A DNA stretch of 64,000 nucleotides from NCBI GenBank assembly GCA_002419505.1, contig DIGF01000033.1:12564-76563 (forward strand), written 5' to 3'. This DNA comes from Bacillales bacterium UBA5729 (GTDB lineage: Bacteria > Bacillota_I > Bacilli_A > Izemoplasmatales > Hujiaoplasmataceae). The translations under genes were made by a program, and so were the position numbers. Shown piece by piece: positions 7,164 through 40,007 of the stretch. The number at the start of each line of letters is the position of its first letter. Position 1 is the stretch's first letter. The notes beneath the pieces were generated by a model, which worked only from the letters and a program-made list of their open reading frames with translations, had not been told where the DNA came from and searched no databases.

Positions 7164-9728
7164 ATGAGAAAAACACAAAGAAAAACACAAAGAAAAACAC
7201 AAAGAAAAACAAGTTTAGCAAGAAGAATAGTCAGTTTAACGGTTTTTGTTGATATGATATTCTTGTTAATAATTGCCACAACCTTCCTTTTCTATATCTT
7301 TATAAGTATCAATCAAAACAAAGCAACGGTTGTTTCTAATCAAACACAAGCAATTGTCAACTCGACCGAACAATTTTTGAATGGAATAAAAAAGGACGCT
7401 GATTTACTAGCAACCAATGAAACTGTAATTGAATATTTAAAGTATGTCAATGCAGGTAATGATCCGATTATTTTAGAAACAGATCCTAATTATCACATTT
7501 ATTATGATTTTATCTTATTAACAAACGCAATTGTTAATCATCAAAACGAGGAAGCCTATGATTTGATTTTCTTAGCCACTGAGTTTAACTGTGAAACTGC
7601 CACAGATGGCTGTGCCATAACTAATACAGGCGCGTTGTTATATGAAACTTGGTTTATTTCCGAACGACCTTGGTATGTTAATTTAGGCACAAGAGAAGCT
7701 GCTTTAACCGAACCTTATATTGATGCTTTAAGTGGAGAATATACTTTCACCTATGTAGAAAGAATTTATGACAATGAAGAGTTTATCGGTTATATTGGAA
7801 TTGATATGTCATTGTTAAGTTTGGCTGATGTCTTTGATTTAATCGATCGTGAAATCAATGGACAGATAGCTGAAATAATGATTTTCATAAATTTTGAAAC
7901 CAATCCTACTCTGGCTTTCTATAGCAAAGAAATCTATGCTGATTATTTTATGGTACCACATACTGATTTTCAAAACATTGACGATAACTTAAACTATAGC
8001 GAAAACGGTATGTATAATTTAATTAGTAGTTATGAAGAAAATCAAGTAGTAACAAACAACTTTTTTGGTACTGAGTATCTTGTCACTTATAATAATCTCG
8101 ATGACTTTGGTTGGCATTTTGTAGTTTTAGTTGATAACACAATGATGTTTTCAATGGAAATTATCTTCATTATGCTGTTAGCCGTCATTACAATACTAAT
8201 ATATTTGACAAGCCTTTTGCTAAACAAAAGAATCAAGCGTTTACTAGCTCCGATTCATACAATTATCGATTCGCTTGAAGAAATCAAAAATGGTAACTAT
8301 AGTATTAGAGTTAATTTAGTCGAAAACAATGAAATCAAAGAAATCGGTGATGCGATAAATTTAATGTCAAGAGAGATTGAAAAGCAAGTTGATTTGGTAT
8401 ATGAAACCTTTGCTTATGACAGTTTAACAGGTTTAAAGAATATTAGTGCCGCCTCATTAGATATTAATAAATATGTCTTATCTGGTAATAGAAAAACAGC
8501 AATTTGTATTTTTCAGGTTGAAAATATTAAAAATATCAATATAATTAAAGGACAGATAGTTGGGGACAATCTCTTAAAAACAATTGCTTTAGAGCTTAAA
8601 ACCATCTTGGAAAACAGTGAATATATCTACGCTAATGGTCATGATGAATTTATTTATATTATGACTGGCGTTAATTCGCTAGAGCAAGTAGAAAATAATA
8701 TCAGTAAAATTCTAGCTCATTTTAAAGAACCATTGATTGTAAAGAATATAAAACTAGAAGTGAAATTCTATATCGGTATTGCAGTATATCCTAATGATGG
8801 TAGCATCCTTGACGACTTGGTAAAAAAGAGCGACACCGCATTATATAAAGCAAAACAAACCGGCAGTAAGCGCTATTTATTCTATAACGAGAACATCGCA
8901 AGAGAGATTTCGTATAAGGCACAAATCTCAGAACAACTCGGAAAAGTTATTGATAATAAAGAACTCTACTTAAAATATCAACCACTTGTCGATAACAAAA
9001 ACGAGCTCTATGGTTTCGAAGCTTTAGTTAGGTGGAATTCCCCGATACTTGGCGAAATATCACCAAATAATTTTATCACTAATGCCGAAGAAAACTATAT
9101 GATTGTACCAATTGGTAACTACGTTTTAAAAGAAGCTTGCTTTATGCAAGTAAGAATGAAAGAACTTTTCAAGAAAGAGTTCAACATCAGCGTCAATATT
9201 TCATCTATTCAATTAATGCAATTTGATTTTGTTGAAACTGTAAAGTCTATTATCAAAGAGACTGATATCAGCGCCGAGTATTTAACCTTAGAATTAACCG
9301 AAAGTGTCTTCTTGGATTCAACAGCAATGATTGAAGAAAAGATATCAGATTTGAAAGAATTAGGAGTAAAGTTCTCGCTTGATGACTTTGGTACTGGATA
9401 TGCATCCTTAACTTATTTAAGACAAATAGCTTTCGATAACATTAAAATAGATAAAAGCTTCATTGACGGAATCTTTGGTACTGAAAATGATCACAAGATA
9501 GTTGGCACTATAGTAAACTTGGTTCATAACCTTGATATGAAGGTTATAGCTGAAGGCGTTGAATCTAAACGACAATATGAATATTTAAAACAAATAGCAA
9601 CTGACGTTTTCCAAGGTTATATGATTTCAGAACCGCTGACAGAAGAAGCTATTCAAGCATTCATTAAGTTGTTTTATAAGATTGCTAAGGCTAGACGTAT
9701 TGATGTCCTTGCAACCAAATATGAATAG
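7164..9728 (+). CDS. membrane sensor protein: TM - Cache-like extracytoplasmic domain - TM - HAMP - GGDEF (A-site NGHDEF) - EAL (intact motifs), predicted c-di-GMP phosphodiesterase
   Basis: GGAG lies 8 nt upstream of the ATG. Cache-like signature: ERPWYVNLGTREAALTEPYIDALSGEYTFTYV. A second TM is followed by a HAMP-like segment (RLLAPIHTIIDSLEEIKNGNYSIRV...IGDAINLMSREIEK). The GGDEF position reads NGHDEF (8634-8651). EAL motifs are EALVRW (9018-), NIS, ELTES, DDFGTGYAS, KIDKSF, EGVES and QGY. Confidence 0.85.
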   Translation: MRKTQRKTQRKTQRKTSLARRIVSLTVFVDMIFLLIIATTFLFYIFISINQNKATVVSNQTQAIVNSTEQFLNGIKKDADLLATNETVIEYLKYVNAGNDPIILETDPNYHIYYDFILLTNAIVNHQNEEAYDLIFLATEFNCETATDGCAITNTGALLYETWFISERPWYVNLGTREAALTEPYIDALSGEYTFTYVERIYDNEEFIGYIGIDMSLLSLADVFDLIDREINGQIAEIMIFINFETNPTLAFYSKEIYADYFMVPHTDFQNIDDNLNYSENGMYNLISSYEENQVVTNNFFGTEYLVTYNNLDDFGWHFVVLVDNTMMFSMEIIFIMLLAVITILIYLTSLLLNKRIKRLLAPIHTIIDSLEEIKNGNYSIRVNLVENNEIKEIGDAINLMSREIEKQVDLVYETFAYDSLTGLKNISAASLDINKYVLSGNRKTAICIFQVENIKNINIIKGQIVGDNLLKTIALELKTILENSEYIYANGHDEFIYIMTGVNSLEQVENNISKILAHFKEPLIVKNIKLEVKFYIGIAVYPNDGSILDDLVKKSDTALYKAKQTGSKRYLFYNENIAREISYKAQISEQLGKVIDNKELYLKYQPLVDNKNELYGFEALVRWNSPILGEISPNNFITNAEENYMIVPIGNYVLKEACFMQVRMKELFKKEFNISVNISSIQLMQFDFVETVKSIIKETDISAEYLTLELTESVFLDSTAMIEEKISDLKELGVKFSLDDFGTGYASLTYLRQIAFDNIKIDKSFIDGIFGTENDHKIVGTIVNLVHNLDMKVIAEGVESKRQYEYLKQIATDVFQGYMISEPLTEEAIQAFIKLFYKIAKARRIDVLATKYE
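7167..7211 (+). repeat. 12-nt tandem repeat (agaaaaacacaa x3 plus a 9-nt partial copy) encoding (RKTQ)n at codons 2-16 of the GGDEF-EAL gene
   Basis: Read directly: units at 7167-7178, 7179-7190 and 7191-7202 are identical, and 7203-7211 is a partial copy. The unit length is a multiple of 3, so copy-number change stays in frame. Confidence 0.9.
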
Positions 9729-9737
9729 AGGTGAATT

Positions 9738-11240
9738 ATGGTTAATTTAATTTTTCTAGCGGATCAATCCTGGAGTACAGAACCTTGGGAGGTAGTAGTT
9801 GCAATTTTAGTAATATTGCTTACCTTGGTATGTTTATTTTTCCTTTACCGCAATGTTATTTTTAATTTTAAGAAGAATCGTCTTGAAAAAGAAAAAATGC
9901 AAGAAGATTTTAAAAAACAAGATGAAAATGGCATAGATAAAGTTAACGGTGACAATATCTCAAAGCATCCTTTATTGGCTGAAATAAACAAAGACATATC
10001 AGAGATTAAAGAGGGTGAATTAAGATTATTTTTTGCAATTAATATTGATAATTTTCGCTATATAGTTGATAGTTATGAACAAAAAGATATTGATAAAATT
10101 ATTGTTGAATATCTGAAGAGACTCAAAAAGTATGGCGACAAATATTCGATTGCTGGCCATTATGAAAAAGATATGTTCATTTACTATTACAAAGGTGAAA
10201 TTGACAATGACAAAATGAATTTTATTGCTAAGGATTTGCTTGGATTAATTGCTCAACCGTTAAAACTAGGTAATCATGAACTCACTGCTTCAATTGGAGT
10301 TTGTCTTTTCCCTTATGACGGCATTACCGCTGAAAACCTACTCAAAGATGCAGAAATTGCTGTTTACGTAGCAAAAAAAGAAGGAAAAAATCGCTTTTGC
10401 ATGTATTCAGAAAACTTAATCGAAAAAGAGCAGTTTAATATTGATTATTATAAACAAATAAAGAAATCAATTGAAAACGACGAATTTCTTTTGTATTATC
10501 AACCAATCGTTGATATTAGAACTGGAAAAATCATTGGTTTAGAATCACTACTTAGATGGCAACATCCAACTATGGGAATTCTTTCGCCGGGAAAATTCTT
10601 GAATGTCATGGATTTAACCGGAGATATTACTTGGTTTGGTATTTGGGGTTTTGAAAAAGTAGCTGAACAATATAATACTTGGAAAAAAAGTATTAAATTA
10701 GGGGACTTCTTTATTTCGATAAATCTTGGTCCAAAACAACTGTTTGTAGAAGGTTTAGCAAGACAATTTTTCGAGATTACTGGAAAGCAAGGTTTAAGTC
10801 CAGAAAACTTCTGTTTAGAAATTTTAGATTATTATGTAATTACCAACAATGATATTGCTCAACACAACTTAAAAGAATTTAGACGCTACGGGTTCCGTTT
10901 GGCGATTGACGATACTGGACCTGATTTTGCGGTGGCTAATGACATGAGCAAAATCAGTGCATCTATCTTTAAACTGTCTCGAGGTAATCTTTTACTAATC
11001 AATAGCGACGATGACGATGTAGCTAAAATCGAAAGAGTTATCCAAGCCGCTAAAGCTAATCAAAAGATAGTTATTGCTGAAGGGGTTGAGGATGAAAATA
11101 TGATTAGAATTCTTAATAAATGGGATATACGCTTTATGCAAGGATATTATTTCTCCGAACCGGTATCGGTAGAAGAAGCACAAAGAATGATGCATAAATC
11201 TCCATGGAATATGAGTTCATTCAACCATTTAGTAAAGTAA
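9738..11240 (+). CDS. single-TM protein with degenerate GGDEF-like domain and partly degenerate EAL domain (candidate c-di-GMP receptor or weak PDE)
   Basis: GAGGTG RBS ahead of the ATG. N-terminal TM: VVVAILVILLTLVCLFFLY. The GGDEF position reads GHYEKDMF (10155-10178). The EAL position reads ESL (10542-10550) followed by LRW. DDTGPDF replaces DDFGTG, and KLSRGN replaces K-x-D. EGVED and QGYYFSEP are retained. Confidence 0.8.
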   Translation: MVNLIFLADQSWSTEPWEVVVAILVILLTLVCLFFLYRNVIFNFKKNRLEKEKMQEDFKKQDENGIDKVNGDNISKHPLLAEINKDISEIKEGELRLFFAINIDNFRYIVDSYEQKDIDKIIVEYLKRLKKYGDKYSIAGHYEKDMFIYYYKGEIDNDKMNFIAKDLLGLIAQPLKLGNHELTASIGVCLFPYDGITAENLLKDAEIAVYVAKKEGKNRFCMYSENLIEKEQFNIDYYKQIKKSIENDEFLLYYQPIVDIRTGKIIGLESLLRWQHPTMGILSPGKFLNVMDLTGDITWFGIWGFEKVAEQYNTWKKSIKLGDFFISINLGPKQLFVEGLARQFFEITGKQGLSPENFCLEILDYYVITNNDIAQHNLKEFRRYGFRLAIDDTGPDFAVANDMSKISASIFKLSRGNLLLINSDDDDVAKIERVIQAAKANQKIVIAEGVEDENMIRILNKWDIRFMQGYYFSEPVSVEEAQRMMHKSPWNMSSFNHLVK

Positions 11241-25261: not shown

Positions 25262-25334
25262 TTCCTTTTATAAATGGAGCGCTTTCGTGATAATGGGGCG
25301 GAGAAAGCGCTCCGATAAAAGGGAATATTTTTTT
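25262..25334 (+). terminator. strong intrinsic terminator ending the thiolase-liv-hydrolase operon
   Basis: 11-bp perfect inner stem ggagcgctttc/gaaagcgctcc (25276-86 / 25303-13) plus a 10-bp outer stem (25262-71 / 25315-24), followed by T7 at 25328-25334. Confidence 0.85.
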
Positions 25335-25354: not shown

Positions 25355-25383
25355 TTGACAAATAGATTTGACTATAATATAAT
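25355..25383 (+). promoter_or_regulatory. sigma-A promoter of the riboswitch-led locus
   Basis: TTGACA 25355-25360, a 17-nt spacer, then TATAAT 25378-25383. A second overlapping TATAAT sits at 25373-25378. The exact TSS is uncertain relative to the proposed P1 helix. Confidence 0.6.
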
Positions 25384-25458
25384 CAACTTGTAAATAGCAA
25401 AACTAGCGAAAGTTAGTGACGCAAAGCTATAGGGCCTTCGATAGATGGTAGCCAGTTG
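25384..25458 (+). promoter_or_regulatory. c-di-GMP-I (GEMM-I) riboswitch aptamer
   Basis: GCAAAA (25397-402). Hairpin ACUAGC-GAAA-GUUAGU (25402-417) with a GNRA loop. GACGCAAAGC (25418-427). CUAU/AUAG helix (25427-30 / 25441-44). GGUAGC (25447-52). Possible P1 is CAACUUG (25384-90) pairing with CAGUUG (25453-58). The order and spacing match my memory of the GEMM-I consensus and the Vibrio Vc2 aptamer. Confidence 0.8.
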
Positions 25459-25488
25459 CCGTTATCTTTTAAAGATGAGGGCATTTTT
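25458..25488 (+). terminator. intrinsic terminator forming the riboswitch expression platform
   Basis: GCCGUUAUCU / AGAUGAGGGC stem (one G-G mismatch, one G-U pair) with a 5-nt loop, then AUUUUU (25483-88). Its 5' arm abuts the aptamer 3' end. Confidence 0.65.
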
Positions 25489-25595
25489 AATTTCTTAGGC
25501 ATTGATACCTAACTAGAAAAAAATGTACACTCACTAGGTGATGGCTTTTTTTCTATAGTAAGTCAGAAAAAGAATGGGGGGATCCGTTTGCGAAT

Positions 25596-26360
25596 ATGAG
25601 CCAAAAAGTTAAATTAGCTAGTCATATTGTAAATGCCTCTAAGGCCGCAAAAATCGCTAAAGCAAGTCGTCTTGGCATTGTCGTAAGCGCCGTCCTCGTC
25701 TTTCTAATCTTCTCGATTTCCTACTATGGGACGATGGTTGGTAATTTCACCTTCAGTGTTGACGGTTTCGCAAGAGATGCAGGCATTACCATGTATGAAT
25801 ACGCAGATAGAAAAGAGTTTAGAACAAGAATAGTTTCTGAAAAAGTTGAAGACAACCATGGAATGACAGGTTACTGTGGGACTGAGTATTATGATGGTTC
25901 CTACGGTGAGGAAGTATGTATTCCTGATGATGATGTATTAGGAGTAGATGGTCCTAACAACGGCGAATCTTACATCGCACACACATTTTATGTTGAAAAT
26001 GCCGGCGATTACATGATTGACCTAAGCGCAACGATTAATATTTTATCTGCAGTTAGAGGTGCAGAAGAAGCTCTAAGAGTACGGGTGATCATTAACGGTG
26101 TTGGAGTTACTTATGCTAAAGTTCAATCTGAAAGAGGAGTATCGCCTGGAGAATTAGAACCCTTGACAGAAAGTTTTTACAGTATTGATAAAGTCTTTTA
26201 CCAAGAATTTCTAGAAATGGATGTTGGAGAATTTATCAAAGTTACAGTGGTTGTATGGTATGAAGGAACAGACGCCGATCATACAAATGATTTATTTGGA
26301 GGCGGAATAAAATTAGACATGAAATTTTCAGTCACAAATGTTTACAAAGATAGGCTTTAA
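25596..26360 (+). CDS. TasA/camelysin (M73)-like protein, paralog 1, with an N-terminal signal-anchor
   Basis: N-terminal TM then GTMVGNFTFSV (compare the SipW-type G-T-x-A-x-F-x-D region). FYVENAGDYMIDL strand motif. C-terminal NDLFGGGIKLDMKFSV resembles the TasA ..NKYQGNSIKLQFSFEA ending. Confidence 0.65.
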   Translation: MSQKVKLASHIVNASKAAKIAKASRLGIVVSAVLVFLIFSISYYGTMVGNFTFSVDGFARDAGITMYEYADRKEFRTRIVSEKVEDNHGMTGYCGTEYYDGSYGEEVCIPDDDVLGVDGPNNGESYIAHTFYVENAGDYMIDLSATINILSAVRGAEEALRVRVIINGVGVTYAKVQSERGVSPGELEPLTESFYSIDKVFYQEFLEMDVGEFIKVTVVVWYEGTDADHTNDLFGGGIKLDMKFSVTNVYKDRL

Positions 26361-26418
26361 TTTTTGATTACAAAAATGTATAATAAATATAATATGAAAT
26401 AATAAAGGAGAAAAATTT

Positions 26419-27363
26419 ATGAAAAATTTAAGAAACAAAGTGATTCTTTCAGGAATCGTATTACTATTTGCGTTTATCGCAACAATTGGTTCGACTTATG
26501 CATGGTTTACAGTTTCATCAACGGCTACAGTCAGTGAGATAACATTAAACGTTCAAGCTGAAGAAAACTTGTTGATAAAAATTGTACCATATAATGAAGG
26601 ATCAGGGACTTTTGCGCCTGATTATAGTCTAAACCCTGCAGGATATCAATCTGCAGTTACGCTTGCGCAATTACAAACAGCTGGATATTTGCCTACTGGA
26701 ACCCCTTGGAGATTATTGCCTTCAACAGTTTTTGCAACAGATGAAGCTACTCATGATGATATCAACGAAAGGGTACTCCACTATCTTGGAGATCCTACCG
26801 ACAGTTTAAGAACTTTAGTAGCTGCTCCATTTAATAACGGATCAAGTGGTAGATATGTTCAACTTCAATTCATTGTTATGCAGCAATCAGACATTCCTCA
26901 AGCTCTTGAAATGAGAACAATTAGAATTTCCGCTTCTTATGGTGTTGGAGATGCTAGAAATAACATTGCTGAAGCAGTTAGGTTATCTGTATGGGGAGAT
27001 GACACGGGTTATCTTGGTCATGACACAGAATACACTCCTTTAATTGGAGCTCCTTTAACCTTTGGTAGAGACTCGGATTTTGCTTATTCTTTTGCTGGAA
27101 GAACAGGTTTTACATTTACCAATTTGGATACTATAGCTCAAATTCGTGATGGAATATCCCCACTATATCCAACAGTTATTGATATATATGATGGTTCTTC
27201 ATGGGTTGATCCAGTTCAAGATGTATTCATTTTACAACCGAATGCTCCTACATTAATTACCGTTAATATTTACATAGAAGGTTGGGATGAACAAGCAGAT
27301 AACTACATTATTGGTGCTGAATTTGATATTTCATTCGCCTTCACAATTGGAAGTATTGATTAA
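26419..27363 (+). CDS. TasA/camelysin (M73)-like secreted protein, paralog 2 (likely major subunit)
   Basis: AAAGGAG RBS. The signal peptide ends in IGSTYAWFTVSSTATVSEITLNV (camelysin: GGTFAYFSD...GTLDL). The C-terminus is IYIEGWDEQADNYIIGAEFDISFAFTI. It is followed by a strong hairpin. Confidence 0.7.
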   Translation: MKNLRNKVILSGIVLLFAFIATIGSTYAWFTVSSTATVSEITLNVQAEENLLIKIVPYNEGSGTFAPDYSLNPAGYQSAVTLAQLQTAGYLPTGTPWRLLPSTVFATDEATHDDINERVLHYLGDPTDSLRTLVAAPFNNGSSGRYVQLQFIVMQQSDIPQALEMRTIRISASYGVGDARNNIAEAVRLSVWGDDTGYLGHDTEYTPLIGAPLTFGRDSDFAYSFAGRTGFTFTNLDTIAQIRDGISPLYPTVIDIYDGSSWVDPVQDVFILQPNAPTLITVNIYIEGWDEQADNYIIGAEFDISFAFTIGSID

Positions 27364-27394
27364 TTCAGTTTAATAACGAATAAAAAACTATAAA

Positions 27395-27425
27395 AACATA
27401 ACTTAGGCTTGTCCTAAGTTATGTT
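27395..27425 (+). terminator. 13-bp perfect stem-loop without U-tract (partial terminator or mRNA stabiliser) after paralog 2
   Basis: aacataacttagg-cttgt-cctaagttatgtt, followed by accttatggg. It lies in the only long (207-nt) intergenic gap of the locus. Confidence 0.45.
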
Positions 27426-27570
27426 ACCTTATGGGTAAATAACCAAATTATATGGTTTAAATTTAAAATAACCAACATTTTTTGGCCATTTCTCAATTTC
27501 CTGATGAAAAAAAGATTAATCTGCTATATAATAGTATGATGTAAGTCTTTTTAGATGAGGAGTGAATTAG

Positions 27571-28272
27571 ATGATGAAAATCGCATTACACAAAGACAAG
27601 GTAAAAAAAATATTAAATATTACTTTTTACGTTGTGATATTTATTGTTTTTGTATACGCAATATTTGGGCTTTTTTCTAAAAAAGAAGGTAACTCTATTT
27701 CTTTTTTAGGTATAACGTCAATGTCAGTACAATCTGGATCAATGTCACCTACTTTTGAAGAAGGAGATTTGATCTTCGTTAAAACTGACTTTAATCCTAG
27801 AGACTTAGTCGAAGGTGATGTTATCACTTACCAAGATTTTAGAATGACAGAAAACGGAATTGTATCCTATTATAACACTCATAGAATTGAAGATATTGAT
27901 AAGAGTGGTACGGTATGGCGATTTATTACCAAAGGTGATGCTAATGCCGAAAATGATCCAAGACAATTATTAGAAAACGAAATCTATGGTGTTTGGACTG
28001 AAAGGTCATGGGCAAAATTTGGTGGTTTCATTGATAATTTTACTAACTTTTTAAAATCAAGTTTGGGATTTTTCCTATTTATTGTTGTGCCATGTTTGGC
28101 TTTACTAGTTTATGAAGTTATTAAATTTATGAAAGTTTATGCAGAATATAACGTTCAAAAACATACCCATGACAGAGTTAAGATGCAAGAAGAAGCGTTA
28201 GCTCAAGCTAGAGCACAACTCGAAGCGGAAGCGAAATCCAAGGCGGATGGTGTAGAACCGAAAAAAGAATGA
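27571..28272 (+). CDS. sipW: signal peptidase I, ER/archaeal type (SipW-like), copy 1
   Basis: GAGGAG RBS. N-terminal TM, catalytic box QSGSMSPTF, His box NTHRIEDI and KGDANAEND box. A C-terminal TM plus a charged tail, as in SipW. Confidence 0.85.
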   Translation: MMKIALHKDKVKKILNITFYVVIFIVFVYAIFGLFSKKEGNSISFLGITSMSVQSGSMSPTFEEGDLIFVKTDFNPRDLVEGDVITYQDFRMTENGIVSYYNTHRIEDIDKSGTVWRFITKGDANAENDPRQLLENEIYGVWTERSWAKFGGFIDNFTNFLKSSLGFFLFIVVPCLALLVYEVIKFMKVYAEYNVQKHTHDRVKMQEEALAQARAQLEAEAKSKADGVEPKKE

Positions 28273-28307
28273 CATCCCATCGCCTAGATTAATGGAGGGA
28301 TGTATTA

Positions 28308-29948
28308 ATGAAAGAATTTTCAGCGTTTTACGTTGACCTTTTTATCGAGATATGGAATGATATAGTATTTTTCTTTAGAGATGCTATTTGGAATAATATA
28401 ATAAAACAATTCTTTAGAAACGTAATCTCATACTGGAATCTTTTAATGGAAGATTCCGTTTTGTACGAGTTTAATACTTTATCATGGATTATGGTTGTGG
28501 TGGCCGCCCTTCTCAACATTACCTTAATCATTTTTATCGTTTTAAGAATCTATTTATGGATTAAAAAATATCTTTCTTTTAGAAGAATTGAAATTGAAAA
28601 GAATGAACTTATCGAAGAAATCGCCGAACTAAATGAAAAAGTTATCGATTTAATCGATGAAAAGAATCAAATATTAGCTATGAAAGTTAGTCAATTAGGA
28701 ATTAATGCCAGAACTGGTGAAAGCGGAGAAGTTTATTATGCAAATGCAAATAAGCCAGGTTTACAACCAGCCTTTGGACAAGCCGGTACAGGTGGAGTTA
28801 ACTCTGGAGTTGTACCACTCAGTTCAGGCGATGGTTCTAGTCCGATAAATCCTGCTGGACCATCAAGATTCGTTAAATTAATTCAAGTTGATAAAGAATA
28901 TGCTGGTAAAGACACTCATATTTATATGGAAGATAGTGATTATGTCGCCTTACCAGAACTAGTAACGAGATTTGTTAATTTCGCCGCTTCACAGTTAAAG
29001 TTATACTATACACCAAGAATGGTTTCTTATTTCTTTGCTGGTATGGCTGCTTCAAAAATTATTATTCTAGAAGGTATCTCCGGTACAGGGAAAACCTCAT
29101 TACCATATGCTATGGGTAAGTTTTTCGATAATCCAGCTGCGATGATTTCAGTTCAACCGGCTTGGCGTGACCGCGCGGAAATCTTAGGATACTTAAATGA
29201 GTTTACTAAAAGATTTAATGAAACTGATTTCTTAAAGAACCTCTATGAAGCAATTTATAGAAAAGATGTAAATTTAATTGTTTTAGATGAGTTAAACCTT
29301 GCGAGAATTGAGTACTATTTCGCTGAGTTTTTATCAATCATGGAAATGCCAGATCCAAATGAATGGAAAATTGACCTTGTCCCAGATTCAAAACCATCTG
29401 ATCCGTTAAAAGTAATTAATGGAAAAATAACTGTTCCACTTAACATTTGGTTTGTTGGTACTGCAAATAAAGATGACTCAACATTTACGATTACTGATAA
29501 GGTTTATGACCGTGCTATCTCATTAGAATTTGACTCTAAAGGTGAATATTTCCAAGCGCCAGATACTAAGCCAATTCACATTTCTAGCGCTTACTTACAA
29601 GAGTTATTCGATGAAGCTTATTATAAGTTCCCAATTAGTGAAGAAACACTTAATAACTTTAAAATCTTAGACAAGTATATTCAAGCGCATTTTAGAATCG
29701 CTTTTGGTAATAGAATCATGACTCAAGTTTATAAGTTTATTCCAGTTTATGTTGCCTGTGGTGGTACTGAACTTGACGGCTTAGATTATATCTTCGCTTA
29801 TAAAGTTTTACGTAAATTTGAGAGTTTAAATTTGGCATTTTTGCAAAATGAACTTAACGAATTAATTAATCAAATTAAAAAGATTTTTGGTAAGAACAGC
29901 TTTGAAGAATCGATTAATTTTATTAAAAACCTACAAAAATTAGTTTAG
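28308..29948 (+). CDS. membrane-anchored McrB-like AAA+ (AAA_5 clade) NTPase
   Basis: TM at about 28479-28566 followed by KKYLSFRR, then a coiled coil, then a Gly/Pro-rich linker. Walker A is GISGTGKTS (29073-29099). VQPAWRDRAEILGYLN. Walker B/sensor block is LIVLDELNLARIEYYFAEFLSIME (29274-29339). WFVGTAN. Confidence 0.75.
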   Translation: MKEFSAFYVDLFIEIWNDIVFFFRDAIWNNIIKQFFRNVISYWNLLMEDSVLYEFNTLSWIMVVVAALLNITLIIFIVLRIYLWIKKYLSFRRIEIEKNELIEEIAELNEKVIDLIDEKNQILAMKVSQLGINARTGESGEVYYANANKPGLQPAFGQAGTGGVNSGVVPLSSGDGSSPINPAGPSRFVKLIQVDKEYAGKDTHIYMEDSDYVALPELVTRFVNFAASQLKLYYTPRMVSYFFAGMAASKIIILEGISGTGKTSLPYAMGKFFDNPAAMISVQPAWRDRAEILGYLNEFTKRFNETDFLKNLYEAIYRKDVNLIVLDELNLARIEYYFAEFLSIMEMPDPNEWKIDLVPDSKPSDPLKVINGKITVPLNIWFVGTANKDDSTFTITDKVYDRAISLEFDSKGEYFQAPDTKPIHISSAYLQELFDEAYYKFPISEETLNNFKILDKYIQAHFRIAFGNRIMTQVYKFIPVYVACGGTELDGLDYIFAYKVLRKFESLNLAFLQNELNELINQIKKIFGKNSFEESINFIKNLQKLV

Positions 29949-29958
29949 GAGGTCCATT

Positions 29959-31500
29959 ATGGATGAAGGAACCGCTAAACGTTATTACAAAAAAATTAAT
30001 ACGACTTTTCAAGGTGTAAATAAGCTTGATGATTTCGCCAAGCAGTATTTAAACCTTCTTGAAAGTTCAAAAATTGAACTTTATCAAAAAGAAAGACGAG
30101 AAAGAAGAATCTTTGATGATTCATGGTTGTCTAATATTGAAGGAATTTTACCAATACTTGATAAACTTACTAGAAATCCAAAAGAAAGCTTAAAGAAAGT
30201 AACTGAAGTTGTGCCTGTAGAACGAGCGAAAAAAATTGATTCAGGTACAATTAGACACTTAGCAGCTAACACACAGTTAATTAAAAAAACCAATAATAAA
30301 GGCGAAATTCAACCTTCTAAATTACTTACAAGTTTTTCTGAATCAGAACTAGGAACCTATGAAAACAGATTTTTAATGACCTTAGTTGACAAGATTTTTA
30401 CATTTATTGAGATTAGATATAAACTCATCAATCGGAAGATGAATACTGAATATGTTAATTTCTTGAAAGTAAATTCAGAAATTGAGTATCAAAGTGCATT
30501 AATTCATTATGATATTACTTTAAAAATTAATCGTAATATGGAGGAAGATGCTGTTTGTAAAAAAAATCAAGAATTATTTGATCGAATGAAAGATTTAAGA
30601 GATGGTATTAGAAACTATAAAAACTCTTCTTTCATGAGGCAGATGTCAGGCTTTCCACCAATTAGACCACCAATTATGAAAACCAATATTATTATGAAGA
30701 ATATTGAATTCATTCAATGTTATGATTTGTGGATGTTTATGGATACAGTCGATAGAGTTGGGTATGAAGTAGATGTATTTGAACGTGACGTTAAATTTGA
30801 TGAAGAGTATATTCGTCAAATTGAAAACACAATGTTAGTCCTTTATGCTACAGTAGCTAATAATCAAACTGAAGAATTCTCTTTATCTCATGAAAATCCT
30901 TTTACATATCGTAAAGTAAAAACACCAAGAGTTCTTACAAAAGTTGACGAAGACAGATATTTAGAATCAGCGGAATTCTTGATTAAAGATGAAACTTTAA
31001 ACCAATATTTCCTAGAACAAATCAGAAAAGATAACGTCGAAAGATATAATACACTTATTGAAGCTGGAATTCCTAAGGATAAAAGCATAGATATAATCCA
31101 TCGAAAACTTTTGGAAATCGCTGATGGAGCTTTTAAAGACTTTATCAATTACACTTTCAACCCTGAAATTGAGAAAGATTTAAATAAAAAAATAGATGTT
31201 CAAAACGAAATTTTAAAAGTATATCGAGATATTGAAAAAGTTAAACGCGAAAACATTAAAGATTTAGAAACAGAAAAAGCTCTTGCTTTATTAGCTCTCA
31301 ATAACTATCGAGAAGAATTAAACAATAGAATCGCTAAACAAAAAGCGGACATAGAAGCTAAAAAAGCGGAAGAAAGAAGATTAAAGCTTCAAAGACAAAA
31401 AGCTATTGCTCAAGAACGCGCAGCAAAAAAGAAGAAAATCGATCGTGCAAAAGAATTGTTAGAAAAAGCTGAAAGAGCTAGAAAATTACAAAATAAATAA
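29959..31500 (+). CDS. soluble partner protein of unknown family with a Lys/Glu-rich C-terminal coiled coil
   Basis: Starts 10 nt after the AAA+ gene with a GGAGGT RBS. No TM. The C-terminal ~110 aa are heptad-like and highly charged (KQKADIEAKKAEERRLKLQRQKAIAQERAAKKKK...). I could find no nuclease motif. Confidence 0.7.
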   Translation: MDEGTAKRYYKKINTTFQGVNKLDDFAKQYLNLLESSKIELYQKERRERRIFDDSWLSNIEGILPILDKLTRNPKESLKKVTEVVPVERAKKIDSGTIRHLAANTQLIKKTNNKGEIQPSKLLTSFSESELGTYENRFLMTLVDKIFTFIEIRYKLINRKMNTEYVNFLKVNSEIEYQSALIHYDITLKINRNMEEDAVCKKNQELFDRMKDLRDGIRNYKNSSFMRQMSGFPPIRPPIMKTNIIMKNIEFIQCYDLWMFMDTVDRVGYEVDVFERDVKFDEEYIRQIENTMLVLYATVANNQTEEFSLSHENPFTYRKVKTPRVLTKVDEDRYLESAEFLIKDETLNQYFLEQIRKDNVERYNTLIEAGIPKDKSIDIIHRKLLEIADGAFKDFINYTFNPEIEKDLNKKIDVQNEILKVYRDIEKVKRENIKDLETEKALALLALNNYREELNNRIAKQKADIEAKKAEERRLKLQRQKAIAQERAAKKKKIDRAKELLEKAERARKLQNK

Positions 31501-31528
31501 TAGAAATTTAAAAAAAGAGGTGATGGAA

Positions 31529-32119
31529 ATGAAAAAACGGTTTATGCTATCGCTAACAGCGTTAATAGCATCTGCTGCTTTATTTGTTATTGCCTCTTTT
31601 GCTTGGTTTGTTTTAAGCACTTATTCACCTGTTGACACTATTCCTGGAGGAACCAAGGGGGTATTATATGATTTAGGTGGAGAGTTTATAATTGGAAGTG
31701 TTATTTATCCTGAACTTGAACTTTTAAGCGAAGATATATCAATCACGAGCTATTCAACAGAAAGTCTATATTTAAGAATTAAGATAGTATATTTAAGAAT
31801 TAATGTTAATTATATTGATTCAGAGTATGTAGTTTCATCTCCCACAATAGACATATATAGTGACAATTTTAATGATGAACATTTATCAGTAATCCTTAAT
31901 TCAAATTTCTTTTATGAGAGCGATGAGTATTGGTATTATGACGAATTAATTTATGGTGATTCTGTTACACACACCTTAATAACTTCGCTTTATTATGATG
32001 GTTTCAAAGCTAGTAACGAGTATGCCACTGAACCTTTAAGCATAAGCATAATTCTTGAAGTAAGCACTGGTGAAGATGGTGTATGGGATCCGCTCACTAC
32101 CTTAACCACAACCACGTAG
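31529..32119 (+). CDS. TasA/camelysin-like secreted protein, paralog 3 (small)
   Basis: GAGGTG lies 6 nt upstream of ATG 31529. The signal peptide ends IASFAWFVLST. The C-terminal NEYATEPLSISIILEV resembles the family ending. Thr-rich tail. Confidence 0.6.
   Translation: MKKRFMLSLTALIASAALFVIASFAWFVLSTYSPVDTIPGGTKGVLYDLGGEFIIGSVIYPELELLSEDISITSYSTESLYLRIKIVYLRINVNYIDSEYVVSSPTIDIYSDNFNDEHLSVILNSNFFYESDEYWYYDELIYGDSVTHTLITSLYYDGFKASNEYATEPLSISIILEVSTGEDGVWDPLTTLTTTT
31767..31803 (+). repeat. 21-nt-period direct repeat (tatatttaagaattaa x2) inside paralog 3
   Basis: 31767-31782 and 31788-31803 are identical. They encode LYLRIKI / VYLRINV. Confidence 0.8.
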
Positions 32120-32135
32120 TATAAATAGGAGTAAA

Positions 32136-32744
32136 ATGAAAACTGTCTTAAAGAAAGTAATATTTGCTTTGCCGTTTGTATTTATCGGTTTGGCCATGAT
32201 AATGATGGTTCAGTTAGGTATCTCATTGAAAAACAATGAAGTACCTAATATTTTTAATCGCGCCATGTTATACGTTAAAACACCATCAATGGAAGATACG
32301 ATTATGGCTGGAGACTTAATTTTTATCAATGTTAAAGACAGAGACTTCTATGAAGAAGATATCATTAGTTTTAGAAGACCTGATAAACCGGAGATAATTA
32401 TTACCCACAGAATTGTAAATATAGATGGTGATTTAATTACCACAAAAGGAGATAACAACTACACCTCAGAAACCTGGGAAATAAACTTTTCTAAGGATTT
32501 TGTTTTGGGTTCTTATGTAGGGAAATCAAGTTTATTAGGGTCTGTTTACGAAGTTTTATTTTTAAACAGTTTAAATGTTTTGTTTGGACTGATTACTGTC
32601 GTGTTTTTGCTTATTGGGGTAATTGAAATGAGAAATATTATTAAACTGCTTTCTCAGAAAAAAGCAGCTGAAATTGAAGCGGAAAAGCAACAAATGATTG
32701 AAGAATATAAAGAAAAAATAAAAAGTGAGAAGGAACAAAAATGA
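32136..32744 (+). CDS. sipW: signal peptidase I, ER/archaeal type (SipW-like), copy 2
   Basis: N-terminal TM, Ser box KTPSMEDTI, His box ITHRIVNI, TKGDNNYTSE box, and a C-terminal TM plus a charged tail. Confidence 0.85.
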   Translation: MKTVLKKVIFALPFVFIGLAMIMMVQLGISLKNNEVPNIFNRAMLYVKTPSMEDTIMAGDLIFINVKDRDFYEEDIISFRRPDKPEIIITHRIVNIDGDLITTKGDNNYTSETWEINFSKDFVLGSYVGKSSLLGSVYEVLFLNSLNVLFGLITVVFLLIGVIEMRNIIKLLSQKKAAEIEAEKQQMIEEYKEKIKSEKEQK

Positions 32745-33532
32745 GAGCAATCATCCTAGCAAGCGGCTCACAAGCTAATGTTACTTATTTAGAAATTGGT
32801 GAGAGTAAAATTTTAATCGACTGTGGCTTAAGCTATAGACAAATCGTTTATCGTTTAAAAGAACATAATAAAAATCTCGATAACTTAAACGCAGTTTTCA
32901 TCACTCATGAACACGCTGATCACGTTGCGGGTTTGAGAGTGTTAGCTAAAAATCACAAGATGAAAATTGTCCTTAGCGAAGGCACTTATCAAGGGTTAAA
33001 TAAAAGGTTTTTAGGTGAGATCGATGAAGAATTATTTCTGATAGTCAAGAGCTTGGAAAGCTTTGAATTTGGTGATTTTCAAGTTTTGCCTTTTGCAACT
33101 TATCACGACGCAGTTGAACCTTTCGGCTATCGCTTTATTGAAGAAAATCGATCATTGGTATATATGACTGACACCGGATATTTCCCAATTAAATACTATG
33201 AATATCTAAAAGATGCGGATTGCTATATCGTCGAAAGTAACCATGAAGTGGAAATGCTTTTAGAGAGTGCGAGACCTTGGCTTTTAAAAAGGAGAATTCT
33301 AGATGATGAAGGTCATTTGTCAAATGAAGATAGTGCGAATTTAATTTTAAATCTTGTTGGTGAAAGAACTAAACAAATCGTTTTAGCACATCTCTCTCAA
33401 GAATGCAATTTAGAGAGAGTAGCTTTAGAAACATATGAAAAAGTTTTCCTAGAACAAGGCATAGATATTAAGAATTATCGAATTTGTGCAGCTAATCAAA
33501 ATCATTCAACTGATGAAATCATTATTGAATGA
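32741..33532 (+). CDS. MBL-fold metallo-hydrolase (YycJ/WalJ-like)
   Basis: ITHEHADHVAG (HxHxDH) motif. About 263 aa. Its ATG overlaps the sipW-2 TGA (ATGA). Confidence 0.85.
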   Translation: MRAIILASGSQANVTYLEIGESKILIDCGLSYRQIVYRLKEHNKNLDNLNAVFITHEHADHVAGLRVLAKNHKMKIVLSEGTYQGLNKRFLGEIDEELFLIVKSLESFEFGDFQVLPFATYHDAVEPFGYRFIEENRSLVYMTDTGYFPIKYYEYLKDADCYIVESNHEVEMLLESARPWLLKRRILDDEGHLSNEDSANLILNLVGERTKQIVLAHLSQECNLERVALETYEKVFLEQGIDIKNYRICAANQNHSTDEIIIE

Positions 33533-37249: not shown

Positions 37250-37409
37250 GATTGAAATTTTACGGGTTTAGCGCTATAATTAGTAGAAGATTTTTTAAAA
37301 CTTCGAATATTAAGTGAGCATTTTATGAAATCGTCTAAAAAAGGTTTTAATTTATCGATCATTTGTTATATAATATATAAGATACTTGAATTTAAAGGAG
37401 TTAATAAAA

Positions 37410-40007
37410 ATGCGATTATTTACTAAAAGAATTACTTATTTTACGCTAACCCTGATACTAGGATTAGTTTTAGTTGCTTGTGGTGGCAAGACAACGACTG
37501 ATGTAGCACCTGAAAATTTATTAATCCCACAATTGACTAATCCGGAAGCGATTTATTATCAAACTGATGATTTTAATATCACATACCGTGATTTGTATAA
37601 TAGCCTGAAGATTAATGATGGTTTAAACCAATTGTTAGCGATGGTTGATACTGACTTGTTAAAAGATTATATCGATCAAGTTACTCAAGACCAAATTAAT
37701 AAGAAACGCGAAAAATTAACTTTCGGAACTAATGATGCGGAAATTATCGAATCATTTGGTGAAGAGCGCAGAGCTGAATATATCCAAAACTTTGAAGAAT
37801 CACTCTTTCTTATGGGATATGAAACAGACATCGATGATTATATTCGTTTAGTTTTAGCAAGAGAACAATATTCAACTGATCTAATGTTAAGCGAAGCTTC
37901 AGTTGATGAAACTTGGCATGTTGGTCCGAAACAAATAGCTAACTATTACGATATAACTTATCAAAAAGACATTCAATCAATAAAGATTAAGTTCTTATCA
38001 GAAAATGATGCTAAAACAGTTATGAGAACATTTAATTTAGTCACCAGAAGTGGCCAGTTAATGTTATATACCGGAACTAAACCTCTAGCGGAAGTTCCTT
38101 CATTTGAACTGAATGAAACCAACACACAAACATTAAATGACGAAGAACTTCTAAGTTACTTTATTCAAATGTATAATTACGTTTATCAGGATATTAAAGA
38201 TCAATTATCTGAAACAGCTACTGTTGAAGAGTTGATTAACAATCCTGATTTAACTCAAGTTTTTAAAGATATCAAAGCCTTTAATAACAACTTAGCTAAT
38301 TTCATGTTCTTAACATTAGGGAATTATGAAGATTTCACTTCTGAAGAAGATGAAGTTCCATATTACACTTATCGTCCAGAGAAATTTTTCTCAGGAAGCG
38401 ACACAGCTTATTACATGATTCTTAATTTAACTGGTACAGAAAAAGCTGATGTAAAAGATTTTGATGGTACAAAAGTTGAACTTATCGAACTAATCGGTGA
38501 AGACAAGTATAACGAAATCGAAACTGAAATCATCAATAATAACCTAAGTTCTCAAACTTTTGTTACAAGAAGAATCGCTGATTTAAGAAGAGAACACGAT
38601 TTTGTAATTTATGATTATTACTTAACAATTGACTATAAATCAATCGACACAAGATATGTAGCACATGAAGAAGGAAGTTTAACAAAAGTTGCTTCTTATG
38701 ATGATAAGACAATCACACCAGACCAATTATTAACTTATGCGCTTAACCGTAACGCTGCGATGTATTTAATTTACTCGGCTCAGTATAAAGCTGTTATGGC
38801 TGCTCACTATGAAAATGTTTACTGCTTAAATACGAGTTCTTGTGAATATGATTACCGACAAAACGAATCGGCTAAAATGCTCGAACATGTCATCGAATTC
38901 AATAATATGAAAACTCAATTCCTTGAAAGCATGTATTCAACTTATTACACATTTGATGAGTATCTATATCTAGCATATGGTGTTAAAAGCGAAGAAGAAA
39001 TGATTAAGAACTACTATGTAAAATCTACACTTCAACCGATTTACATCTTTGATAATATTATCAAGAACGATTACGAAATCTTAAATGACGTTTTAGACAT
39101 CATGGACGGATATTATGAGAATTATTTCAGTTTGAAAGCAAACCACATTTTAATCTATCTAGACCGTGATGAAAATGGTTCACCTGATAATTACGAAGAT
39201 TTTTATGAAGGTTTAGAAGATACGACTGCATATGACGCTAAATTAGCTGCTTTAGAACTAGCGATAAGAGAATATTTAGCGATTGAAGACAACACTATGG
39301 CTAAATTAGTTAGTGAATATAAACTAGCAAGTAGAGATAATGAAACTTGGGGAGAATTCAAAAGATATGGTTTCTTCTTACTAACAGAAAACCTTTCAGC
39401 AACCACTTCGTTAACTTTCACTTCTACAATTAACAAATTTGAAAGAAGTTTTGTGGATGCCTTAGTTGAAATTTATCAAGAATATAAGTTAGAAGAAAAT
39501 ATTGATAAGAATTTTATATTCAACGATACTTTAGTTGAAACTTCATATGGGTTGCATTTGATTAAAGCTGAAAAAGGCACTAATTTTGATATGCCAAACG
39601 CGAAGTTTACGATGACTTATAATGATGATAATGAACCTAACTTTACAGTTGGTTTAGAAAACGAAGAAGACCACATCAGTTTCGAACAACTTAAAATCTA
39701 TGCGCAATATCGTTTTACAGTCATCGCTTTTGGAACGGTTAATATCAGCGAATTATATGGTTTTACCAGACCTACTATTCCGACTTCAGTTAATAATGCC
39801 TTGAAAGAGTTTGCGACTTCATTGCATGATGCATTATATGTTGTTGGTTTTATGAACATTGGTATTATTGAAGAATTAAAAGCTGGAGACTTCATTAACA
39901 GTCAATCTCAATATTCAAATGTAAGTGAAACTGATTTGATCAATACGATGAATAGAATCAGCGAAATCTATTTCCGTCAAATATATGCCGAACTAGATCA
40001 AAGATAA
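37410..40007 (+). CDS. large PrsA-like foldase lipoprotein with a C-terminal parvulin-type PPIase domain
   Basis: AAGGAG lies 9 nt upstream of ATG 37410. Lipobox LVACGG. The parvulin-like block runs from LKANHILIYLD to ETSYGLHLIKAEKG. Confidence 0.7.
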   Translation: MRLFTKRITYFTLTLILGLVLVACGGKTTTDVAPENLLIPQLTNPEAIYYQTDDFNITYRDLYNSLKINDGLNQLLAMVDTDLLKDYIDQVTQDQINKKREKLTFGTNDAEIIESFGEERRAEYIQNFEESLFLMGYETDIDDYIRLVLAREQYSTDLMLSEASVDETWHVGPKQIANYYDITYQKDIQSIKIKFLSENDAKTVMRTFNLVTRSGQLMLYTGTKPLAEVPSFELNETNTQTLNDEELLSYFIQMYNYVYQDIKDQLSETATVEELINNPDLTQVFKDIKAFNNNLANFMFLTLGNYEDFTSEEDEVPYYTYRPEKFFSGSDTAYYMILNLTGTEKADVKDFDGTKVELIELIGEDKYNEIETEIINNNLSSQTFVTRRIADLRREHDFVIYDYYLTIDYKSIDTRYVAHEEGSLTKVASYDDKTITPDQLLTYALNRNAAMYLIYSAQYKAVMAAHYENVYCLNTSSCEYDYRQNESAKMLEHVIEFNNMKTQFLESMYSTYYTFDEYLYLAYGVKSEEEMIKNYYVKSTLQPIYIFDNIIKNDYEILNDVLDIMDGYYENYFSLKANHILIYLDRDENGSPDNYEDFYEGLEDTTAYDAKLAALELAIREYLAIEDNTMAKLVSEYKLASRDNETWGEFKRYGFFLLTENLSATTSLTFTSTINKFERSFVDALVEIYQEYKLEENIDKNFIFNDTLVETSYGLHLIKAEKGTNFDMPNAKFTMTYNDDNEPNFTVGLENEEDHISFEQLKIYAQYRFTVIAFGTVNISELYGFTRPTIPTSVNNALKEFATSLHDALYVVGFMNIGIIEELKAGDFINSQSQYSNVSETDLINTMNRISEIYFRQIYAELDQR

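Follow-up and report, generated by a model that had tools for sequence, protein, structure and literature searches.

Eight genes at positions 25355 to 33532 of the 64,000-nt stretch of Bacillales bacterium UBA5729 DNA analysed here (the window) appear to form one operon with which a wall-less Izemoplasmatales bacterium builds a protein fibre on its cell surface when cyclic di-GMP (c-di-GMP) is high, a reading to which we give a probability of roughly 0.6. The genes, referred to as g1 to g8, encode three candidate fibre subunits (g1, g2 and g6), two SipW-type signal peptidases (g3 and g7), a membrane-anchored McrB-like AAA+ nucleoside triphosphatase (NTPase; g4) with its McrC-type partner (g5), and a metallo-beta-lactamase (MBL)-fold hydrolase (g8). 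Judged by its features, the locus is a member of CoCoPALM, a clade named by Bell et al. (eLife 2024), who deferred its analysis to 'a separate, forthcoming publication' (PMC11090510). An earlier reading of the window from its letters (the sequence-only reading) had called the locus a novel system; the gene combination already bore that name, with its function unexplored (PMC11090510). Four aspects appear to be new, in that we found no published account of them: the families of subunits, the putative c-di-GMP ON switches, which are conserved and often present in several copies, the absence of the nuclease, and hosts that lack a wall.

The unity of the locus is seen most clearly in its gene order. 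When each species was represented by a single genome, relatives of g4 turned up in 359 genomes, and the best 80 loci were compared, the synteny counts taking in only loci with enough flanking sequence (36 upstream and 46 downstream of g4). Profile searches with the eight window proteins gave the order g1, one to four copies of g2, a peptidase, g4, g5, zero to three g6-type genes and a second peptidase, which by these matches is essentially invariant in the 80 species genomes of Izemoplasmatales and Acholeplasmatales. Upstream of g4 the peptidase is present in 36/36 loci and g1 and g2 each in 35/36, and downstream g5 and the second peptidase are each found in 45/46 and a small g6-type subunit in 37/46. 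The sequence-only reading had raised the question of whether the AAA+ pair accompanies TasA-like and SipW genes elsewhere, and had offered the alternative that a McrBC-like defence module had landed in a duplicated fibre operon. The pair does occur with the subunits and peptidases (35-36 of 36 loci upstream, 45 of 46 downstream), hence it is integral to the fibre locus and the inserted-module alternative is rejected on synteny. Furthermore, g4 is the most conserved gene of the locus, with 50-89% identity across the two orders, while the subunits diverge fast (28-68% identity among homologues for g2, 24-63% for g1 and 19-36% for g6), a pattern typical of a machine that is inherited vertically and has exposed subunits, and not of a defence island.

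Two variants of this arrangement were seen. Mycoplasmatota strain zrk2 has two loci in one genome (L047 and L052, in our numbering of loci), the second consisting of g1, g2, a peptidase, g4 and three g6-type genes, without g5 or the second peptidase and with its own riboswitch (69 bits). A minimal locus in a 30%-GC lineage (L089/L090, 5524-11135) is reduced to g1, g2, a single peptidase, g4 and g5, the linker in g4 being longer, and sits directly after hrcA-grpE-dnaK-dnaJ.

The best 80 loci carry labels that are nearly all Izemoplasmatales, Acholeplasmatales/Acholeplasmataceae, Mycoplasmatota/Tenericutes or unclassified Bacilli/Bacillota, and they take in Acholeplasma laidlawii, Mariniplasma and one Anaeroplasmataceae metagenome-assembled genome (MAG); a few MAG records stand under other names such as Bacteroidales and Omnitrophota. 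Homologues of g4 with 64-100% identity come from Candidatus Izemoplasmatales, Hujiaoplasma nucleasis, Acholeplasmataceae and other Mycoplasmatota, and the identical locus is also present on metagenomic contigs of up to 438 kb. Izemoplasmatales have been described as free-living bacteria without a cell wall (PMC8397711, PMC10470597). Since the nearest homologues are from Candidatus Izemoplasmatales, which are wall-less (PMC8397711), the earlier guess of a wall-less, Acholeplasma-like host proved a reasonable one.

The unit is clearly delimited in the window. Its left boundary is the intrinsic terminator of an upstream alpha/beta-hydrolase gene (25262-25334, + strand), for which the sequence-only reading had the right position and which folds as a 22-bp interrupted stem followed by a U-run at -29.6 kcal/mol. 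The eight co-oriented open reading frames (ORFs) lie on the + strand between this terminator and the PFOR gene, with every coordinate and the strand reproduced as first read, and their successive intergenic gaps are 58, 207, 35, 10, 19, 16 and -4 nt. Most of the family labels given to them at that stage also held in the Pfam and TIGRFAM scans (g3, g5, g7 and g8).

Transcription would start from a sigma-70-type promoter, TTGACA-17-TATAAT (25355-25383, + strand), which matches the consensus at 12/12 positions and was the top hit of a 9-kb scan. Three bases past it begins a c-di-GMP-I (GEMM-I) aptamer (25386-25463, + strand; Rfam RF01051, 64.1 bits against a gathering score of 35, E 3.2e-10), the only Rfam match in the window, so that the proposed riboswitch-led unit has both a clear aptamer and a perfect promoter. 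The expression platform contains a terminator, T1 (25458-25495, + strand, -13.2 kcal/mol), whose 5' arm GCCGUUAUCU (25458-25467) covers the last 6 nt of the aptamer and whose 3' arm AGAUGAGGGC (25473-25482) runs into a U-rich tract. The same element, GCCGUYAUCY/AGAUGAGGGC with a U-tract, stands at a fixed position in 24/24 Izemoplasmatales-type leaders, starting within the last six nt of the aptamer. A second copy of the T1 3' arm (AGGUGAUGGC) with U7 follows at 25536-25552 (+ strand) and is complementary to the same 5' arm. Related leaders have one to three further copies with a U-run (three in L013 and L054), all complementary to the lone 5' arm at the aptamer end, and these may be back-up terminators sharing one switchable arm.

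The riboswitch is conserved as well. Where a locus takes in the leader, the GEMM-I core motif is nearly always found upstream of g1, and Rfam scored above the gathering threshold in 14/14 tested loci with a g1 leader, A. laidlawii among them. In the 80 loci there are 48 riboswitch groups, 34 directly before g1 homologues and 6 before g2- or g6-type genes, and at least five of the other 8 precede ORFs with the same N-terminal signal motif. The minimal locus L089 and the stand-alone g4-g5 pairs described below have no riboswitch. On these matches the c-di-GMP wiring claimed for the window is conserved across two orders.

In Acholeplasmataceae two to four complete riboswitch units, each an aptamer with its own terminator, stand in series before g1 or subunit-like genes (L079, 6047-6510; L071, 5931-6329; L057, 5146-5368; L084, 6175-6408; L066, 14846-15143). 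L079 has four aptamers at 6047-6484 with one terminator each, and four riboswitches in a row would require ligand at each unit and should give a very steep response. These loci also indicate the direction of switching. In L079 and in L070, which is from A. laidlawii, the 5' arm of the terminator, GCCAG(UU), is formed by the paired 3' strand of the aptamer itself; the ligand-bound aptamer and the terminator are therefore mutually exclusive, which is an ON design. In the window the T1 arm overlaps the conserved 3' tail of the aptamer and there is no space for a separate anti-terminator. We infer that the leader is an ON switch there too, with less certainty.

The window also encodes candidate c-di-GMP proteins, and the domain anatomy bears out the likely phosphodiesterase and degenerate receptor-like protein reported before. 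The product of 7164-9728, likely a sensor phosphodiesterase, has Cache and HAMP domains, a GGDEF domain that is degenerate (GHDEF) and an EAL domain that is intact (EALVR, DDFGTG, EGVE), and that of 9738-11240 has a degenerate GGDEF and a degenerate EAL domain (ESLLR, without DDFGTG) and may be a receptor. A. laidlawii has 14 GGDEF/EAL proteins, unlike other mollicutes, as reported in 2008 (PMC2408644), and we found no paper stating what they control. The present locus, preceded by one to four c-di-GMP riboswitches in the genomes examined, is the obvious candidate for their output.

The three candidate subunits of the window resemble one another in parts, and none of them has a Pfam or NCBIfam match. 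The probable major subunit, g2 (26419-27363, + strand, 314 amino acids, one to four copies per locus), has a signal peptide reading IGSTYAWFTVS and a conserved C-terminus. In an alignment of 39 homologues its N-terminus is near-invariant (MK.LR.KVILSGIVLLFAFIATIGSTYAWFTVS) and is followed by a variable middle and a conserved IYIEGWD...N.I..A.F.ISF.F end. The small paralogue g6 (31520-32119, + strand), a candidate minor or tip subunit of 196-199 residues with an SFAWF signal, occurs in zero to three copies per locus, and gene callers on the source contigs favour a start at 31529. The aromatic-Ala-aromatic-Phe signal, [FYW]A[WYF]F, is confined to g2 and g6 in the whole window. The 254-residue g1 (25596-26360, + strand) is a candidate membrane-anchored base subunit with a basic N-terminus and one transmembrane (TM) helix followed by YYG..VGNFTF, and is kept in 35/36 loci. 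A good -3/-1 context for cleavage is lacking after this helix, as is any obvious SipW-type motif, so g1 would stay anchored. The C-terminal halves of g1 and g2 are homologous (hhalign 95.9%, E 5e-9) and the 47 N-terminal residues of g2 and g6 align (94.7%), hence the three are paralogous in parts.

An AlphaFold2 (AF2) model of the g2 monomer (mean predicted local distance difference test score, pLDDT, 79; predicted template modelling score, pTM, 0.76) consists of a signal helix, an unstructured stretch past the predicted cleavage site and a beta-sandwich. In a Foldseek search of the PDB its best match was the TasA fibre, 8aur (E 1.9e-3, probability 0.98, TM-score 0.28/0.35), with nothing at E below 1e-3, and the donor-strand filaments 7pnb, 7ueg and 9dlo appeared lower in the list at probabilities of 0.14-0.35. 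A type IV pilus was rejected, as the locus lacks both a prepilin motif of the G/FTLIE type and a prepilin peptidase, its peptidases being of the S26/SipW type.

These peptidases flank the NTPase pair. The first, g3 (27571-28272, + strand, 36/36 loci), is a signal peptidase I of the archaeal/ER type that ends in a TM helix and a charged tail in the cytoplasm; it scores 93.3 bits with TIGR02228 against a cut-off of 51.85 and has the motifs SGSMSPT, THRI and KGDAN. The second, g7 (32136-32744, + strand, 45/46 loci), passes Pfam Peptidase_S26 (31.6 bits against 22.9) and narrowly misses TIGR02228 (48.4 bits). With the motifs SM.P/D.T, THRI and KGD.N in both, the two SipW-type peptidases recognised at first sight are confirmed, each by a different model; both stay below 190, the cut-off of the equivalog model for Bacillus SipW. 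The last gene, g8 (32741-33532, + strand), has a clear MBL fold (Lactamase_B_2, 91.5 bits) and overlaps g7 by 4 nt, as expected of the hydrolase placed in the unit before. It is found in 28/46 loci and in none of the Acholeplasmatales-type loci with listed gene order, so it is probably a passenger, co-transcribed but loosely linked, and we rejected it as a core component.

The putative motor gene, g4 (28308-29948, + strand), encodes an acidic N-terminal segment of 60 residues, a TM helix (61-79), a coiled coil at about 95-130 with a heptad-like stretch (EIEKNELIEEIAELNEKVIDLIDEKNQ), a low-complexity linker and an AAA+ domain (190-546). Across 17 homologues the Walker A motif GISGTGKTS, the Walker B motif LDE and N387-K-D389-D390 are invariant. 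In the PDB a profile of these homologues matched no chains other than those of McrB, and these weakly (E 0.008), in an alignment that runs through the Walker A, Walker B and NxxD regions and places N-K-D-D on the NTAD motif of McrB. The TM-anchored McrB-like gene of the sequence-only reading is thus recovered. By the positive-inside rule the acidic, aromatic-rich first 60 residues are predicted to lie outside the cell and the ring inside. An exhaustive HMMER search with the g4 profile gave 8409 clusters (50% identity), of which 838 have E values below 1e-30, and 83 of the top 150 clusters have a TM helix within the first 200 residues.

The adjacent g5 (29959-31500, + strand, 45/46 loci) has about 400 conserved N-terminal residues and a length-variable, K/E-rich coiled-coil tail, with 25-65% identity among homologues. 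Its residues 28-162 match the McrC N-terminal domain DUF2357 (34.2 bits against 23.3; also matched by 10/18 homologues), and its AF2 model (pLDDT 71, pTM 0.41) has a single helix at 408-512, which together substantiate the coiled-coil partner proposed earlier. Of the two domain models that had been suggested as checks on the pair, DUF2357 passed and AAA_5 did not for the window protein (12.2 against a gathering score of 22), while three distant g4 relatives pass AAA_5 at 22.0-24.6. No Pfam nuclease matched g5, no Asp, Glu or Lys is invariant after W258 across the two orders, and Foldseek with the mediocre g5 model gave nothing significant, neither McrC nor a nuclease; on these grounds g5 is a McrC-type partner without a nuclease. 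A g5 profile gave chance matches only against PDB sequences. The tail ranges across the family from about 100 to more than 400 residues, and the A. laidlawii homologue (L070, 11556-13829, 757 residues) ends in a Rho_N (SAP-like) domain.

The assignment to CoCoPALM follows from these features. Bell et al. describe an NxD McrB-like GTPase fused to an FtsB-like TM/coiled-coil module, genes of the signal peptidase family and a coiled-coil McrC homologue (PMC11090510). The locus has the NxD-type signature, peptidase genes on both sides of the pair (g3 and g7) and the coiled coil on the McrC homologue. The TM and coiled-coil layout of the FtsB-like module is present in g4, with no FtsB or DivIC match of its N-terminus in Pfam even at E 10. 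A literature search found no other paper that uses CoCoPALM in the sense of Bell et al.

The 207-nt gap after g2 contains the hairpin that had been noticed there, at 27395-27425 (+ strand), a 13-14-bp stem without a U-tract. Behind the last g2 gene, 22 distinct loci have an equivalent stem, AACAYAACUUAGG/CCUAAGUURUGUU, in which 97.7% of cells are paired. One pair is fully compensatory (UA 13, CG 6, AU 3) and 0/500 shuffles match the observed covariation, while 10/14 pairs never vary, suggesting that the sequence itself matters. No Rfam family matches it, and it is a candidate transcript-end, stabilising or processing element. In Acholeplasmataceae this position is occupied by another hairpin (TGGTAAGTG...CACTTACCA), which is likewise conserved.

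From this anatomy and its conservation we propose the following functional steps. Binding of c-di-GMP would hold the aptamer closed, block the terminator and allow read-through, and the hairpin after g2 would raise the ratio of major-subunit to machinery transcript. After Sec export, g2 and g6 would be cut behind T-Y-A and S-F-A by both SipW-type peptidases, freeing the conserved N-terminal strand (WFTVS.T..V) to act as a donor strand, such that the beta-sandwiches polymerise like TasA and the archaeal TasA-like pili. With its retained TM helix g1 would be the membrane-bound base, in place of wall-dependent TapA anchoring, which is not available to a wall-less cell. The g4 protein would form a ring of the McrB type, held beneath the membrane by its TM helix and its coiled coil. 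The DUF2357 domain of g5 would activate this ring as McrC activates McrB, without cutting nucleic acid. Through the conserved acidic ectodomain of g4 and the coiled-coil tails of g3, g5 and g7, the pair would organise, anchor or energise the delivery of subunits and the assembly of the fibre at one site. Only tentatively do we suggest that a McrBC restriction motor lost its nuclease, became tethered to the membrane and was exapted to power or anchor a donor-strand fibre, and the role of the pair in anchoring or export energy is conjecture.

Several observations weigh against a fibre built in this way. None of g1, g2 and g6 reaches the gathering score of Peptidase_M73, which is touched by 2/39 g2 homologues (best E 8.8e-4) and 1/16 g6 homologues (E 0.084), and none reaches the threshold of the SipW-cognate signal model TIGR04088, touched by 1/39 g2 homologues (E 0.011). 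The g2 signal TYA|WFT resembles the TWA|AFN of TasA by eye only and is a lead, not a test. Alignment of the g2 profile with the TasA sequence by hhalign gives nothing, although the TasA sequence used matches PDB 8aur at E 5e-151; g6 aligns in register with TasA (E 1e-3) at a probability of only 22%, and g2 and g6 profiles gave only chance matches against PDB sequences. The TM-scores between the g2 model and TasA are low (0.28-0.35). To our knowledge, TasA-type fibres elsewhere assemble without an NTPase, so a motor role is without precedent, and the nearest g4/g5 relatives outside fibre loci are CoCoNuT-like modules on plasmids and beside UPF1-like helicases. In the window, T1 shares with the aptamer only a segment to which Rfam assigns no pairing, hence the ON direction is less secure there than in the Acholeplasma loci. 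Polymerisation, the cleavage sites, the topology and the physical link between NTPase and fibre are all predictions. Of the TasA/camelysin-like paralogues first described, the mutual relationship stands and the TasA fibre is the top Foldseek match, but the hidden Markov model (HMM) tests fail and the TM-scores are low; 'TasA-like' is a reasonable working label, with membership weakly supported by the fold comparison.

The same observations lend themselves to another account, in which the subunits form no polymer. They would be secreted or coat proteins processed by SipW-type peptidases, serving as adhesins or as a matrix or coat for the naked membrane. The AAA+/DUF2357 pair would then be a membrane quality-control or remodelling device, concerned for example with signal-peptide clearance, protrusions or vesicles, and no assembly motor. 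The missing HMM-level link to TasA and the low TM-scores agree with this, as does the membrane anchoring of many g4 relatives in other phyla. Stand-alone g4-g5-type pairs were found in other phyla (L085, L087, L091, L093 and L094), and two of the few examined (L085 and L087) lie beside capsule or polysaccharide genes without fibre genes. The architecture of the locus is nevertheless that of a pilus operon, with three paralogous subunits, varying copy number, a near-invariant strand after the cleavage site and a dedicated anchored paralogue, and the top fold matches are all donor-strand filaments. We therefore regard a coat as unlikely.

A defence function deserves less credit than a coat, although Bell et al. 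set CoCoPALM next to CoCoNuTs (PMC11090510) and the relatives of the pair give it some footing. As a conflict system of the McrBC/CoCoNuT type, the NTPase pair would sense or restrict invading nucleic acid, with the secreted proteins acting as effectors or forming a barrier. The AAA+ domain of g4 matches the candidate defence model PDC-M26A of PADLOC in part (1.9e-36, about 125-150 bits, profile positions about 143-447 of 724), and relatives of this domain alone occur on 283 plasmids and in 2 phage records. CoCoNuT-like helicase neighbourhoods adjoin the pair in L091, which has a VWA-kinase-phosphatase-UPF1-like helicase set, and on a mobilizable Rhodoferax plasmid, where the neighbour is a large helicase-type AAA protein. 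Against this stand the essentially fixed synteny in 80 species genomes of two orders and the 50-89% identity of g4, unlike patchy, fast-turnover defence genes, together with control by c-di-GMP, which is a lifestyle signal. Moreover, g5 has no conserved nuclease motif or structural nuclease match, neither g5 nor its homologues matched a PADLOC model, and no plasmid or phage relative covers the TM/coiled-coil part of g4. Membership of PDC-M26 was itself rejected, since all relatives give the same partial PDC-M26A match and no partner model was matched in the window locus or in any relative. A defence role is in our judgement highly improbable. Elsewhere among the stand-alone pairs, L093 has the pair alone and one g5-type partner (1160 residues) bears an acetyltransferase domain.

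The locus could also be a device for capture and uptake of extracellular DNA, with a fibre that binds DNA, a McrB-like translocase that pulls it in and an MBL hydrolase that processes it. This is the least probable of the accounts: Izemoplasmatales do degrade and feed on extracellular DNA (PMC8289736, PMC10470597), McrB family members translocate DNA, the MBL gene overlaps g7 and the g5 tail is very basic, with its Rho_N/SAP-like end in A. laidlawii, but the predicted place of the AAA+ domain is the cytoplasm and it has no DNA-binding N-terminal domain, no channel protein is encoded, and the MBL gene is missing from 18/46 loci, including every listed Acholeplasmatales-type locus.

A c-di-GMP-controlled surface fibre thus remains our preferred explanation. 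In the current model, fibres of the TasA type assemble by themselves outside the cell and need the wall for their anchoring. A conserved fibre that occurs in wall-less cells and is always accompanied by a membrane-tethered NTPase pair would mean either a new principle of assembly or anchoring, or a new use of McrBC other than restriction. If the proposal is true, it describes a previously unknown route of NTP-dependent pilus assembly (or retraction) that would be the main physiological output of c-di-GMP signalling in wall-less bacteria such as A. laidlawii. The system is open to testing, as A. laidlawii and several Izemoplasmatales strains are cultured and the leader is a compact, predicted ON switch.

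Two further genes of the window were recorded. An ORF of 2280 amino acids at 317-7159, whose true start may precede the window, has a lamin-tail domain as its sole Pfam match and lies directly upstream of the two GGDEF-EAL genes. Downstream of PFOR, 37386-40007 encodes a predicted lipoprotein of 873 amino acids (lipobox LVLVAC) with no Pfam match.

Several known systems invite comparison with the locus. The CoCoPALM paper, which devotes one paragraph to the clade, is silent on structural subunits, the riboswitch, nuclease loss and host range (PMC11090510). With E. coli and Thermococcus McrBC and with CoCoNuT the locus shares the AAA+ core with Walker A, Walker B and N-x-(x)-D, and the DUF2357 partner in an adjacent gene in the same order. 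Unlike them, it has neither a DNA- or RNA-binding specificity domain nor a PD-(D/E)xK nuclease, and its NTPase is membrane-anchored, lies within an operon of secreted proteins and is vertically inherited.

Like the Bacillus tapA-sipW-tasA and B. cereus sipW-tasA-calY operons, the locus encodes an ER/archaeal-type peptidase beside its presumed substrates, the signal peptides end in aromatic-Ala before a conserved strand, and the subunits are predicted beta-sandwiches with TasA as the best structural match. It differs in having two peptidases, three subunit families, an NTPase pair and no wall for TapA-type anchoring, as well as in the Peptidase_M73 and TIGR04088 scores. The Bacillus fibre operons are under the protein repressors SinR and AbrB, whereas control here is by c-di-GMP at the RNA level. 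The archaeal TasA-like filaments, namely the Pyrobaculum bundling pili (7ueg), the Sulfolobus threads (7pnb) and the Pyrodictium cannulae (CanA, 9dlo), are among the Foldseek matches of g2 and are likewise fibres of organisms without a peptidoglycan wall, although the matches are weak (probability 0.14-0.35) and we know of no NTPase linked to these filaments. Finally, c-di-GMP riboswitches control adhesin or pilus genes in Firmicutes, such as pilA1 of C. difficile and the Bc2 and triple-tandem Bc3-5 leaders of B. thuringiensis. The leader resembles these in its GEMM-type aptamer followed by a terminator and in the tandem arrangement known from them, whereas the machinery regulated is a different one and the complete units are repeated up to four times in series, as in L079.

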